Assembly (NCBI GenBank): GCA_963805625.1
Contig: CAWDVE010000017.1
Coordinates: 544,001-608,000 of the forward strand
Origin: an uncultured Candidatus Rokubacteria bacterium
GTDB lineage: Bacteria > Methylomirabilota > Methylomirabilia > Rokubacteriales > DASRDR01
DNA: 64,000 nt
Direction: 5' to 3'
Of this stretch, positions 1,273 to 5,736 are shown one piece after another (position 1 is the first letter of the stretch; each line of letters starts with the position of its first letter). The notes under the pieces are model-generated. The model was not told the DNA's origin. It ran no database searches and saw only the letters and a list, made by a program, of their open reading frames with translations. The translations under genes and the position numbers were made by a program.

Positions 1273-2033
1273 GTACCGCCGCGCCGTCCCGGCTGCTGGG
1301 GAGCCGAGCGGTCGACCTCGCGATCCTCGCCGGCGTGGTGCTGGCGGTGTGGCAGCTCGCGCATCGGGGGGGGGGCGAGGTGGCGATGACCACGCCTCTC
1401 GGCACGCTGCGCCACACCGCTCTCACGCTGGCGTCCGCCGAGTTCTGGCCGCATGCCGGAGCCACGCTGACCGCGTTCGTGATCGCGCTCCTGCTGGCCG
1501 CGGGCACCGGTGTCCTGGCCGGCGCGCTCCTCGGGTACCACCGACTGTCGGGCGAGGTCGCGGAGCCGGTCCTCGTGGCGATCTATTCCATCCCCAAGGT
1601 CACGCTGTACCCGATCATCCTGCTGTTCTTCGGCATCGGGATCAGCGCCGAGGTCGCCTTCGAGGCGCTTCACCGCGTCATCCCCATCACGCTCTTCACG
1701 ACGAACGCGGTGCGTAACATCAACCCCGTGCTCGTCAAGACGGGGCGGATCCTGCGCCTCCCCCCGTGGACGCTGCTCCGGTCCGTGCTCCTGCCCGCCA
1801 CGCTGCCGGAGGTGTTCACCGGGCTCCGGGTCGGCTTCGCTCTGACGCTGATCGGCACCCTGCTGAGCGAGATGTTCGGCTCGCGGCGCGGTCTCGGCTT
1901 CATGCTGATGAACGCGATCGGTCTACACAACATGGAGGTGATCATGTCGCTCACCTTCATGCTGGTCGCCTTCGCGGGCTCGGTGAACGCGCTCCTGCTC
2001 GCCGTCGACCACCGCTTGCATCGCCGAGTGTAG
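1269..2033 (+). CDS. NitT/TauT-family ABC transporter permease
   Basis: GTGA overlap with upstream gene; YSIPKVTLYP and GTLLSEMFGSRRGLGF motifs. Confidence 0.9.
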   Translation: MSTAAPSRLLGSRAVDLAILAGVVLAVWQLAHRGGGEVAMTTPLGTLRHTALTLASAEFWPHAGATLTAFVIALLLAAGTGVLAGALLGYHRLSGEVAEPVLVAIYSIPKVTLYPIILLFFGIGISAEVAFEALHRVIPITLFTTNAVRNINPVLVKTGRILRLPPWTLLRSVLLPATLPEVFTGLRVGFALTLIGTLLSEMFGSRRGLGFMLMNAIGLHNMEVIMSLTFMLVAFAGSVNALLLAVDHRLHRRV

Positions 2034-2175
2034 CCCTGTCATCGGATTGTGCGGGAACGGTGCGGACGGGGGTCCGAGGTCCAGGGCCTCGGTCGACATG
2101 CGCGGCTACGACGAGGTCGTCGCATGGCCAGGGGCGGGCGTCCCGGGGATGGAGGGGCCGACGACGTCAAGTATC

Positions 2176-2210
2176 GCTGCGAAATGTAGCACCGCGCTGT
2201 GAAATGCAGC
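2176..2210. promoter_or_regulatory. Tandem imperfect palindromes GCTGYGAAATGYAGC, putative operator pair
   Basis: GCTGCGAAATGTAGC at 2176-2190 and GCTGTGAAATGCAGC at 2196-2210, 20-bp period, intergenic. Confidence 0.45.
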
Positions 2211-2439
2211 GGCCGGCCCAACTGAGCTCCGCGAGCGGAACCCGGCGTCTAATCCGCTGCGGGGGATTGGGGCCAGTCGCGTCTTCTTGCCCCCTCGCCT
2301 GAAGACGCCCAAGTCCGAGGTGCGGCGGGGGCCGTCCGGTGCCGTCCTTGACACTGCCCGCGCTGGCGCGCACGTCGAAGTCGAGTGGGTCAGGGCTGCA
2401 ATCCCGACTGGAGGGAACGGGGGAAACGGTCGAAAAGGG

Positions 2440-2692
2440 GCCGCTGATCGTGCTCGGGCAGATCTACCAGTGCCACGGTGATCCGGCCCAGACGATGGTG
2501 CATTCCGGAGGGCGCTCGCGGAAGAGACCGGGGAGCCCCAGCTCCTGTTTCCCTGCTACGATGGCCTTGCCACCGTTCATGTGGACCTAGGCGACGAGGG
2601 CCGGGCCGAGGCGTTCATGCAGAGAGTCCAGGCAGGGAGTGAGGGGGAAGCTCGAGCCCGCCGCGCTCGTGGTGCTGCCATTCCTGGATTGA
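2440..2692 (+). pseudogene. Frameshifted C-terminal remnant of a TPR-containing protein
   Basis: Helical TPR-like peptides in shifting frames: PLIVLGQIYQCHGDP / EETGEPQLLFPCYDGLATVHVDLGDEGRAEAFMQR / LEPAALVVLPFLD-stop; no start found. Confidence 0.5.
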
Positions 2693-2717
2693 AAGCAAGC
2701 ACGAGGAGACACTGGTC

Positions 2718-3383
2718 ATGACAGTCGAGCCCCTCCGTCCCGGTGAGCCTGCCCCAGATTTCGCCCTGCCCGCGGTCAATCGGGAAGGTCAGGTCTCGCT
2801 CGCCGAGTATCGTGGCCGCAGCCCGATCCTGGTCGGTCTGTTCCGAGGGCTCCACTGACCCTTCTGCCGACGCCAGCTCGTGCAGCTGGGCACCACGCAG
2901 GAGAAGCTCAAGGCCGTGGGCGTGGAGACGCTGGCGGTGGTCAACACCGCGCTCGAGCGCGCGCGGCTCTACTTCAGGTATCGCCCGACCCGCGTGCTGC
3001 TCGCCGCGGACCCCGATGCGGCGACGCACCGGGCGTTTGGGGTACCCGCAGGCGTGCTCGTCGAGGACGAGGCGGCAGCCGCGTGGCCGCTCCGCGCCAC
3101 GATTGGCCAGCTGCAGACGGTACTGATCAATCCCACCGGAGAGCTGCCCGCGCCGCTGAACCCCTTCGCGGCAAAGGAGGCGCTGAACCAGCGGGACGGC
3201 TTCGAGCCGACCGAGGTCGACCAGCAGATCGCGACCGCGCACGGCACCCAGCTGACCGGGCACTTTCTCATCGACCGGGAGGGGATCATCCGGTGGGGGC
3301 AGATCGAGGCCGGCGAGCGGATCGGCGACCTCGGCAAGTTCCCGAGCGACGAGGAGATCCTGCGCGCGGCCCGCGGTCTCTAG
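2718..3383 (+). CDS. AhpC/TSA (peroxiredoxin-like) redoxin, probable selenoprotein (Sec at TGA 2856-2858)
   Basis: GAGGAG RBS then ATG 2718; MTVEPLRPGEPAPDFALP...GLFRGLH-TGA-PFCRRQL continues in frame into the 2880..3383 ORF (GHFLIDREGIIRW); TGA sits at the first Cys of CxxC. Confidence 0.85.
2873..2889 (+). other. Putative bacterial SECIS hairpin
   Basis: CCAGCT-CGTGC-AGCTGG; loop starts 21 nt after the in-frame TGA with G at loop position 2. Confidence 0.55.
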
Positions 3384-3470
3384 GCCGGCTCCGGCCTGGC
3401 CCGATTCATTGCGGCCACCGACCGCCGGGCCGGGACCCCACCGCGTGGTTCGAGGCGGCGATGCCGCCGC

Positions 3471-3887
3471 TTACCCTTGCCTCCCCAAGTGAAGGTCGAA
3501 GAAGCGCGCGACTTCATCGTGGTACTCGCGGGTCTCGGGTGCGGTGATGTCGGCGAGGTACTGCGCGTGAGATTGACCTTCCCACACCTGCAGCACCGCC
3601 TCGACCCCGGCCGCGCGCAGCTTGCGATGCATCCGCACCGTGTTCGACAAGTACAGGTCGCGTGTGCCGCTGGTCAGGATGGTCGGCGGAAATCCGCGCA
3701 CATCTCCGTAGATGGGAGATAGCAGCGGGTCTCTCAGGTTGCGTCCGTTGGCGTAGAGCAGGGCGGTGGCTCGGATGAAGCCGTCCTGGGTGCCCAGGAC
3801 GTTGTCGACCATGGCGTTCGTGAACAAGGTTTCGCCGGTCTTGGTCAAGTCCACCGTAGGCGTGCCCGGCGCTATGGCACCGGGCAT
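3471..3887 (-). pseudogene. C-terminal fragment of an alpha/beta hydrolase (HSL-type esterase)
   Basis: DPLLSPIYGDVRGFPPTILTSGTRD...WEGQSH carries the catalytic Asp/His; the HGG and GxSxG half is absent. Confidence 0.75.
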
Positions 3888-4039: not shown

Positions 4040-4447
4040 ATGGAAGAACAACGTCGCCTCCGGGTGCTCGTGATCGACGACGATCCCAGTGTGCGTGAGA
4101 TCGTGTGCTATCTGGTCGCCTCGTTCGGGTACGACTGTGAGACGGCGGCCGATGGCGCGAGGGGACTGGCTCGCTTCGACGAGGGGGGTTGGGACCTCGT
4201 GATCACGGACCTCGCCATGCCGAGGATGAGCGGGTGGGAGCTCGCGGAGGCCATCCGGCAACGATCCCCGACCATGCCGATCGTCCTCATCACGGGACTG
4301 ATTGACTCCGAGGTGATGCGGCGCGCCGACGAGCGGGGCCTGCCCGTCGTCCCGAAGCCATTTCGCGAGGAGATGCTGAAGACGGTCGTGGCCAAGGCGC
4401 TCCGGGCACGTCCTTCTTTCGAGACCAGTTCCTCCCACCAGGGCTGA
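4040..4447 (+). CDS. Single-domain response regulator (receiver)
   Basis: LVIDDD, ITDLAMP (phosphoacceptor Asp), ITG, KPF motifs. Confidence 0.9.
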   Translation: MEEQRRLRVLVIDDDPSVREIVCYLVASFGYDCETAADGARGLARFDEGGWDLVITDLAMPRMSGWELAEAIRQRSPTMPIVLITGLIDSEVMRRADERGLPVVPKPFREEMLKTVVAKALRARPSFETSSSHQG

Positions 4448-4781: not shown

Positions 4782-5000
4782 ATGCCAAGCCTGAAGCTCC
4801 TGGATGCGATCGGCAACACTCCCTTGGTCGAGCTCCACCACGTCGTACCGGCCGGGTCCGCGCGCGTGGTCGCCAAGCTGGAGTCGGCGAATCCCACCGG
4901 GAGCATGAAAGATCGTTTGGCCCGGGCGCTGATTGAACGCGCCGCCGCGGACGGACGGCTCTCACTGGGAGGCACGGTCGTCGAATACACGGCCGGCACC
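4782..5000 (+). pseudogene. cysK: N-terminal fragment of cysteine synthase
   Basis: LDAIGNTPLVEL...AKLESANPTGSMKDRLA...VVEYTAGT, then similarity stops abruptly. Confidence 0.8.
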
Positions 5001-5736
5001 GGGCATGCGTGCCCCGAGCGTCGACACGAGCCTCTACTTCTCGCCGCGCCCGCCCCAGTTGCCCTATGCGTTGAGCATGCAGCAGGCGGAAGGGAGGGCG
5101 ACGCGCCGAGACGGCAGCGTCCCTGAGGATGCGACGGTGGTCTGCGGCTTCCTGGGGCTCGACGCTCGGCCGTTCAATCCGCTTCTGGCGGCGCTCCCTC
5201 GCGTGCTTCGGATTCCGGGCAGCACGCTGGGACCCGACTCCTGGGTCACGACCTTCATGCGGTCGGTCGTGGCCGAGTCGAACTCGAGGCGGCCCGGCGG
5301 CGAAGCGGTGCTCGAACGGATGAGCGAGATGCTCTTCGTGGAAGTGCTGCGTCGGCACATCGACTCGCTCCCGCCGGAACAGAAGGGCTGGCTCGCGGGA
5401 ATGCGGGACCCGGCCATTGGTCGCGCGCTCTCCCTCATTCACGAGAAGCCCGCCGAGGCGTGGACGCTGGAGCGATTGAGCGAGGAGGCGGGGCTCTCGC
5501 GCTCGTCGCTTCACGAGCGCTTTGTGCACTTCATCGGCCAGCCGCCGATGCACTATCTGGCCCGGTGGAGAATGCAGGTCGCGTCGGGACTGTTGCGCGA
5601 CACGAGCGCGAAGCTGGTGGCGGTGGCGCTGGACGTCGGCTACGAGAGTGAAGCCGCCTTCTCGCGGGCTTTCAGACGGGTCGCCGGTATGTCGCCCGGG
5701 GCGTGGCGCAAGGTGAAGCGGGCTAGTTCGCGATGA
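4996..5736 (+). pseudogene. AraC-family regulator lacking its N-terminus
   Basis: VCGFLG...FNPLLAALP sensor remnant and double HTH (WTLERLSEEAGLSRS...VGYESEAAFSRAFRR); no own start, joined out of frame to the cysK fragment. Confidence 0.78.

Follow-up and report, generated by a model that had tools for sequence, protein, structure and literature searches.

The window, the whole 64,000-nucleotide stretch of DNA that was analysed, carries near its 5′ end a gene for a redoxin of 221 amino acids with an in-frame TGA, preceded by the 3′ stump of a cyclase gene (Table 1). The initial annotation had described a ribosome-binding site and an ATG from which the frame continues through one TGA, in the context H-TGA-P-F-C, into a 167-amino-acid ORF, and inspection of the sequence confirmed each of these elements. 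The frame comprises 221 codons, the TGA is its sole internal stop, and it ends with a TAG at 3381 to 3383; the 167-amino-acid ORF, which starts at GTG 2880, shares this frame. The TGA lies in the context CAC-TGA-CCC-TTC-TGC, corresponding to FRGLH-TGA-PFCRR in the protein. A GGGAG similar to the GAGGAG of the window precedes the paralogue of the redoxin on contig C19 of the same genome. Two Pfam families, AhpC-TSA (58.8 bits; cut-off, 26) and Redoxin (53.8 bits; cut-off, 26.6), match across the TGA, and dN/dS of the redoxin against 14 homologues was 0.26 to 0.54, values that are pairwise and not branch specific. The window gene likely encodes a 221-amino-acid selenoprotein in which the TGA at codon 47 is read as a predicted selenocysteine (Sec).

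Table 1. Features of the redoxin locus, with positions numbered along the window
Feature	Position	Strand	Basis
3′ stump of the cyclase partner gene (last ~85 codons; deletions of 2, 5, and 2 nt; ends 25 nt before the redoxin ATG)	2437..2692	+	Comparison with full-length relatives
Shine-Dalgarno-like GAGGAG, 9 nt 5′ of ATG 2718	2703..2708	+	Sequence
Redoxin gene, AhpC/TSA (Prx-like), 221 aa, predicted Sec U47 in U47-P-F-C50	2718..3383	+	ORF reading, Pfam, AlphaFold2 model
In-frame TGA, codon 47	2856..2858	+	Cys aligned here in all other 103 rows of alignment A1
TGC, Cys50, second residue of UxxC	2865..2867	+	104 of 104 rows of alignment A1
Predicted lower stem, 7 bp (2861-2867/2897-2903), around the upper hairpin	2861..2903	+	Fold prediction
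Upper SECIS hairpin: 6-bp stem CCAGCT (2873-2878)/AGCTGG (2884-2889), loop CGTGC (2879-2883)	2873..2889	+	Fold prediction

In the surroundings of the gene, a scan of positions 2000 to 3600 for the sigma-70 promoter consensus found none, a terminator scan around the redoxin locus found none, and Rfam had no match in positions 1900 to 3600. An intergenic repeat of ~200 nt (2226-2440), also without an Rfam match, adjoins the truncated end of the cyclase stump. Contigs C7, C10, C12, C13, C17, and C19 carry some twelve further copies of this repeat, weaker and for the most part incomplete (73 to 89% identity). A TTGACA box is conserved in the repeat, and in most copies CACCAT comes 18 nt after it. 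Downstream of the redoxin lie a partial alpha/beta hydrolase gene (3471-3887, minus strand), a stand-alone receiver domain (4040-4447), and an N-terminal fragment of a PALP enzyme (4782-5126) that runs into the frame of a cupin-AraC regulator (4933-5736). A gene for a DJ-1/PfpI-AraC regulator is often found near the redoxin (L040:4670-5746 and about a dozen other loci).

The identity of codon 47 was then compared across homologues, for which the initial annotation had predicted either Cys or TGA. This prediction held, and Trp is nearly absent, with TGG at just one of the 192 distinct loci. The 61 related genomes gave 64 matches to the redoxin, of which 22 carry one TGA and are spread over 16 of the 30 matching genomes; selA was found in 14 of these 16, and the TGA was at codon 47 in all 21 of the 22 matches that were inspected. 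The named close homologues belong mostly to Methylomirabilota/Rokubacteria. A set of 144 distinct genome loci held 25 TGA codons, 15 of them in loci chosen because they had been flagged as TGA, together with 119 TGC or TGT codons and no TGG. Every one of the 66 proteobacterial rows has Cys at this codon and none has TGA, and among 120 database proteins the site is Cys in 119 and Trp in one. When metagenomes were searched with a Trp-bearing query, 79 loci were obtained, 73 of which covered the site; 48 were distinct, comprising 29 TGA, 10 TGC, 8 TGT, and 1 true TGG. Every metagenome locus long enough has 174 to 178 open codons 3′ of the TGA. Judged from these sequences, alleles with Trp do occur, though seldom even when the query itself favours Trp. 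The allele with the true TGG at the Sec/Cys codon (L183) retains the hairpin core described below and may have arisen from a TGA allele as an inactive form.

In a quick, midpoint-rooted tree of 97 of 136 rows, from which 39 proteobacterial Cys rows had been thinned out and in which the codon-47 site was masked, Sec genes fell into at least three groups, with seven label changes, at least five of which were forced by starred branches. Sec and Cys copies of the redoxin occur together at five loci (L025, L033, L110, L116, and L046), mostly in tandem behind one cyclase and in either order. The genome of the window has a third redoxin paralogue, with Cys (C18:36414-37031).

The initial annotation had also proposed a SECIS-like hairpin with a 6-bp stem and a CGTGC loop 15 nt past the TGA. 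The hairpin is present, its upper stem starting at the 15th base 3′ of the TGA and its loop, with GU at loop positions 2 and 3, lying 20 nt past the TGA. According to the legend of Fig. 2 in PMC13188914, the bacterial SECIS consensus has a loop of 3 to 9 nt with a G among its two initial positions, 16 to 37 nt from the UGA, on a stem of at least 4 bp with a minimum free energy of −7.5 or lower. A strict SECIS filter was coded from this legend, and the window hairpin fits it, with CGTGC at 20 nt, 6 bp, and −19.1 kcal/mol. The hairpin is SECIS-like in its agreement with the bacterial consensus but is weak evidence when taken alone, as its folding energy showed no excess over chance relative to shuffled sequences (z of 0.86, −0.74, 0.33, and −0.35 in four fragments). 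The strict filter was passed by 25 of 25 TGA genes of the family, compared with 13 of 52 Methylomirabilota-like Cys genes and 23 of 66 proteobacterial Cys genes, one too-short Cys row being left out of these counts. Since 165 of 600 true TGA stops of the window's own genome (70% GC) also passed, as did 180 of 600 Cys codons, the filter is necessary rather than sufficient. In these sequences, the weight of the hairpin comes from the family-wide comparison and not from the window copy.

Across the family, three TGA clades have distinct hairpins, with the loop CGTGC at 20 nt, GTT or GTC at 18 to 21 nt, and AGTT at 25 nt. Within the clade of the window, the 17-nt hairpin core is identical in 8 of 8 TGA genes versus 2 of 12 Cys genes, and at metagenome loci the same core is found in 26 of 29 TGA versus 11 of 18 Cys loci. 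The strict filter was passed in this closer metagenome set by 29 of 29 TGA and 16 of 18 Cys loci (P value, 0.14); relatives are not independent, and such counts and P values overstate significance. Cys alleles that still have the hairpin, together with the many TGT codons of a lineage rich in GC, may reflect reversions from Sec to Cys of recent date.

The recoding proposed in the initial annotation implied that selA, selB, selC, and selD should be encoded elsewhere in the genome, and this was largely borne out. The genome (G000; 7.27 Mb in 28 contigs, 99.9% complete) contains selA on contig C21 (576 bits) and, 1.2 kb away, a tRNA-Sec whose anticodon is UCA. A selD gene is present as well, itself with an in-frame TGA and with a hairpin that conforms to the model; all of the sel genes lie on contigs other than that of the window, in a bin with 6.26% contamination. 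The remaining gene, selB, follows selA (G000:C21:223591-225488, minus strand) and is full length in sequence but is divided between two frames, with the change at a C7-G5 run. Other frame breaks in the assembly are found in the C19 redoxin paralogue and in the C19 cyclase, and because of these similar breaks the selB frame change is probably an assembly or sequencing indel. Among five relatives tested, selB was intact in three and not found in two.

A rough scan of the genome gave 28 TGA/Cys pairs among 964 candidate TGAs, some of them clearly noise, and 16 of the 28 pass the SECIS filter. From their motifs, we take the contexts of these pairs to include Trx, BCP-type TxxU, AhpD-like, and MoeB-like proteins. 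Further redox-motif TGA/Cys pairs, mostly with a hairpin, are located at C17:56531, C19:61081, C11:170847, C10:1995280, C4:168233, C21:69344, C14:196816, and C21:378609. From its sequence, the genome looks selenoprotein rich; for one Methylomirabilota MAG, a review (PMC13188914) gives 63 selenoprotein genes as predicted. In one relative (G024), tRNA-Sec and a TGA-containing selD are present. In another (G025), a 2.4-Mb bin that is 98% complete, one contig (C35, locus L014) carries both the TGA redoxin and a TGA-containing selD, and selA, selB, and tRNA-Sec were not found, with 150 of 477 tRNA candidates scored; these genes are likely absent through a missing contig.

In order to place the protein among known redoxins, an AlphaFold2 model was built from an alignment of 104 rows (pLDDT, 96.2; pTM, 0.92). 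The model has a Prx/Trx fold in which the UxxC motif starts the active-site helix (residues 48 to 66). Its fold matches include AhpE (Z, 18.3; rmsd, 2.0 over 150 aligned residues), BCP (Z, 16.9), DsbE (Z, 16.2), and human prostamide/PGF synthase (Z, 14.2). The family motif is RGL(H/Y)(U/C)PFCRR, with both redox residues invariant, and 64 of 64 Cys members match both PF00578 and PF08534. Gly181 (103 of 104 rows) is aligned where AhpE has an Arg, which we take to be the catalytic one that precedes the FxID strand. Assignment as a true peroxiredoxin was considered and rejected: there is no PxxxTxxC/U motif, Arg43 and Sec47 occupy the Pro and Thr positions, and Gly181 occupies the Arg position. 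The earlier description of an AhpC/TSA-like redoxin thus stands as regards the Pfam families, the Prx/Trx fold, and the UxxC motif, and is refined in that the protein is not a true peroxiredoxin, since the Prx Pro, Thr, and Arg are missing.

The stump upstream of the redoxin, which the initial annotation had passed over, is what remains of a partner gene, the rest of which is absent from the window. In relatives, the full partner has 1,047 amino acids, with Pfam matches to the zinc ribbon DZR (weak), the class III cyclase domain Guanylate_cyc, AAA_16, and TPR. A 950-bp cassette (2437-3386) containing the stump and the redoxin is 84% identical to a pair on contig C19 (G000:C19:192917-196735, plus strand). 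This is the full paralogous pair, with the cyclase in three assembly pieces followed by a TGA redoxin with two frame breaks. Of 61 genomes, 28 had both redoxin and cyclase, 4 had just one of the two, and 29 lacked both. Starting from the cyclase, the redoxin was found 18 to 160 nt downstream in 26 of 30 loci with a Cys-rich TPR, 8 of them with TGA, a fraction that may be biased upward because the A2 cyclase profile was built from loci first found via the redoxin; one of the four loci without a redoxin had just 237 nt of contig left. Starting from the redoxin, an orthologous cyclase was in the flank of 31 of 80 GTDB loci, and the other 49 were without a full ortholog in the flank examined. The two genes are arranged tail to tail in 12 betaproteobacterial loci, and no such cyclase was found in the flank of the Rhizobiaceae redoxin loci.

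Seven Cys residues in the TPR region of the partner are kept in 37 to 40 of 40 rows; 21 of the 40 also have a terminal Cys. The other cyclase-AAA paralogues of the genome have at most two of those seven and no redoxin neighbour. Cyclase and Walker motif residues are intact in 20 to 22 of 22 full-length partner copies, the kept cyclase residues being, we assume, the metal-binding, substrate-specifying, and transition-state ones. A fold search with a model of the TPR region returned generic TPR superhelices only. As a defence gene the partner was considered and set aside, PADLOC having given only cyclase-domain matches (PycC) and none for the redoxin. A distant, shorter-matching redoxin type (xKGMxCPFC) follows more divergent Cys-rich cyclases at six loci (L162, L164, L165, L166, L087, and L092; with TGA in L164), so that the pairing extends past the main family.

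Collectively, we regard it as very likely that the TGA is decoded as Sec in the redoxin family, and as highly probable that this also holds for the window copy in its own strain. SelB would bind the hairpin past the TGA, and Sec47 would be inserted with the SelA, SelB, SelD, and tRNA-Sec of the genome. In the protein, Sec47 would attack a client disulfide and Cys50 would resolve the intermediate. The absence of the Prx Pro, Thr, and Arg argues for thiol-disulfide exchange rather than a classical peroxidase reaction, and we think it probable that Sec47 is the attacking residue of a CxxC of the Trx type, at the place of the Prx Thr, and that Cys50 is the resolving one. Taken as a whole, the best explanation, which we hold with good confidence, is a Sec47 thioredoxin-fold oxidoreductase that likely sets the redox state of Cys residues in the neighbouring signalling cyclase.

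The identity of the client is a more tentative matter. Gene order and Cys conservation point to the cyclase-AAA-TPR partner as a dedicated client, the pair turning thiol-redox state into a cAMP signal, a proposal to which we give somewhat less than an even chance. With the Cys-rich TPR sensor as client, cAMP output would depend on thiol-redox state. The window copy, having lost its own partner, would serve in trans (the full-length C19 cyclase is one possible target) or as a free redoxin. Slightly less likely again is a complete, undescribed two-gene redox-signalling system, in which a Sec/Cys redoxin would be dedicated to a STAND-type adenylate cyclase whose seven TPR Cys residues form a thiol switch, and in which the Methylomirabilota redoxin would change back and forth between Sec and Cys, its SECIS elements having three or more separate shapes.

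The main alternative is a real selenoprotein that serves as a thiol reductase or antioxidant of general function and is linked to the cyclase through co-expression, as an output turned on together with it would be, and not as an enzyme with its client. This is a serious possibility, though we consider it the case in only a minority of outcomes. It fits the Cys copies that stand alone in Rhizobiaceae and in many Variovorax, the redoxins in 49 of 80 GTDB loci with no full orthologous cyclase in the examined flank, and the frame of the window copy, intact after the loss of its partner; peroxiredoxins, moreover, are the closest folds. However, the link persists in the tail-to-tail arrangement, where the genes are on opposite strands and one shared transcript is impossible, the Cys-rich TPR is specific to the redoxin-linked cyclase subfamily, and the catalytic residues of Prx are missing.

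The window copy might instead not be made as a selenoprotein, being a stranded duplicate without a promoter or residing in a genome in which selB is truly broken, so that its TGA is a stop. The cassette begins inside the partner gene, the stump has deletions, other gene fragments lie nearby, selB is split, and no promoter consensus was found. Yet the redoxin frame, ribosome-binding site, UxxC motif, and hairpin are all intact next to a stump with three deletions in 250 nt, the pairwise (not branch-specific) dN/dS values are below 1, and a TTGACA-bearing repeat lies just upstream. In addition, SelB is needed by selD and by a dozen or more further TGA genes with redox motifs. We consider this reading improbable. 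A conserved split gene, with the TGA a true stop and pieces of 46 and 167 amino acids made separately, would make use of the GTG at 2880; it is very improbable, as the stop in all 55 stop-bearing copies (25 from genomes, 29 from metagenomes, and L164) is a TGA at the catalytic Cys and never TAA or TAG, a start at 2880 would lose Cys50, and the break would cut the active-site helix of the predicted model. Least credible is a sequencing error in the TGA, or a different genetic code in which TGA means Trp or Gly: indel-type breaks in the assembly and the one TGG allele could be cited in its favour, but an error is very unlikely because the same TGA recurs in the paralogue and in 15 other genomes, TGA ends 1,463 long ORFs of the genome, and the sole UCA-anticodon tRNA found in it is tRNA-Sec.

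Taking Sec47 as the preferred reading, the recoding amounts to a solid but unremarkable correction of annotation, since the UxxC class is known and Methylomirabilota have already been reported as selenoprotein rich. What is new is a testable client, the Cys-rich cyclase-STAND-TPR protein, for one of these poorly understood redoxins, and a family that supplies many natural Sec/Cys pairs whose SECIS elements differ or are relics. Should the partner step be true, selenium chemistry would be tied to the cAMP signals of soil bacteria that are abundant and uncultured; if the two-gene system is true, a bacterial selenoprotein would control second-messenger output rather than peroxide detoxification. 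The Cys-only betaproteobacterial versions make the redoxin-cyclase link testable. No description of the redoxin subfamily or of the cyclase pair was found in the literature searched (selenoprotein with Rokubacteria or Methylomirabilota; cyclase, STAND, or TPR with redoxin), and a paper in mSystems on the neighbourhoods of selenoproteins (Haft and Tolstoy 2025) may cover the pair. Neither the subfamily nor its cyclase partner appears in the available portions of PMC13188914, PMC2398784, PMC12013277, PMC13326102, PMC8195603, and bioRxiv 10.64898/2026.01.04.697583, and one file of the BSepDB supplement, of ~4 million characters and possibly truncated, had no matches.

Among known systems, the true peroxiredoxins BCP/PrxQ and AhpE provide the closest solved folds to the redoxin model. 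The redoxin is set apart from the Sec-containing peroxiredoxin PrxU (NF040737) by its score of 22.6 bits against a cut-off of 270, and a Cys homologue (HEU4366843.1) is named by NCBI a "peroxiredoxin-like family protein." No NCBIfam selenoprotein model scored above its cut-off. The best was the SelL-related NF040769 (54.4 bits against a cut-off of 120; E value, 1e-14), which we take to belong with eukaryotic SelL/FAM213 in the PRX-like2 group and which shares a Prx-like fold and a (U/C)xx(U/C) motif with the redoxin; however, the window redoxin and three homologues (4 of 4) lie far below its cut-off, at 44.8 to 64.5 bits.

The redoxin belongs to a known class, the Prx-like UxxC selenoproteins. 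Prx-like UxxC (PF00578) and "Redoxin family" UxxC (PF08534) selenoproteins appear in Table 1 of PMC13188914, and the class is described in the available text of PMC1088965 and PMC2398784. As in that class, the subfamily belongs to the same Pfam families, has UxxC in place of TxxU/TxxC, carries its SECIS right after the UGA, and has widespread Cys homologues. It differs, in a comparison made by description, in its size of ~221 amino acids with an insertion of ~65 residues (~110 to 175) outside the Pfam core and in its tie to a cyclase-AAA-TPR gene, a partner that the available portions of PMC2398784 and PMC13188914 do not mention for UxxC selenoproteins.

The partner, in turn, resembles class III cyclase-STAND NTPase-TPR transducers in having intact cyclase residues, an AAA_16 domain with Walker motifs, and TPRs, and it scores below the TIGR03903 cut-off. 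We presume that it belongs to the SWACOS-type clade. The SWACOS name itself occurs in the available parts of PMC8195603 and of the 2026 bioRxiv preprint. In contrast to these transducers, the partner subfamily combines a Cys-rich TPR region with a fixed redoxin neighbour.
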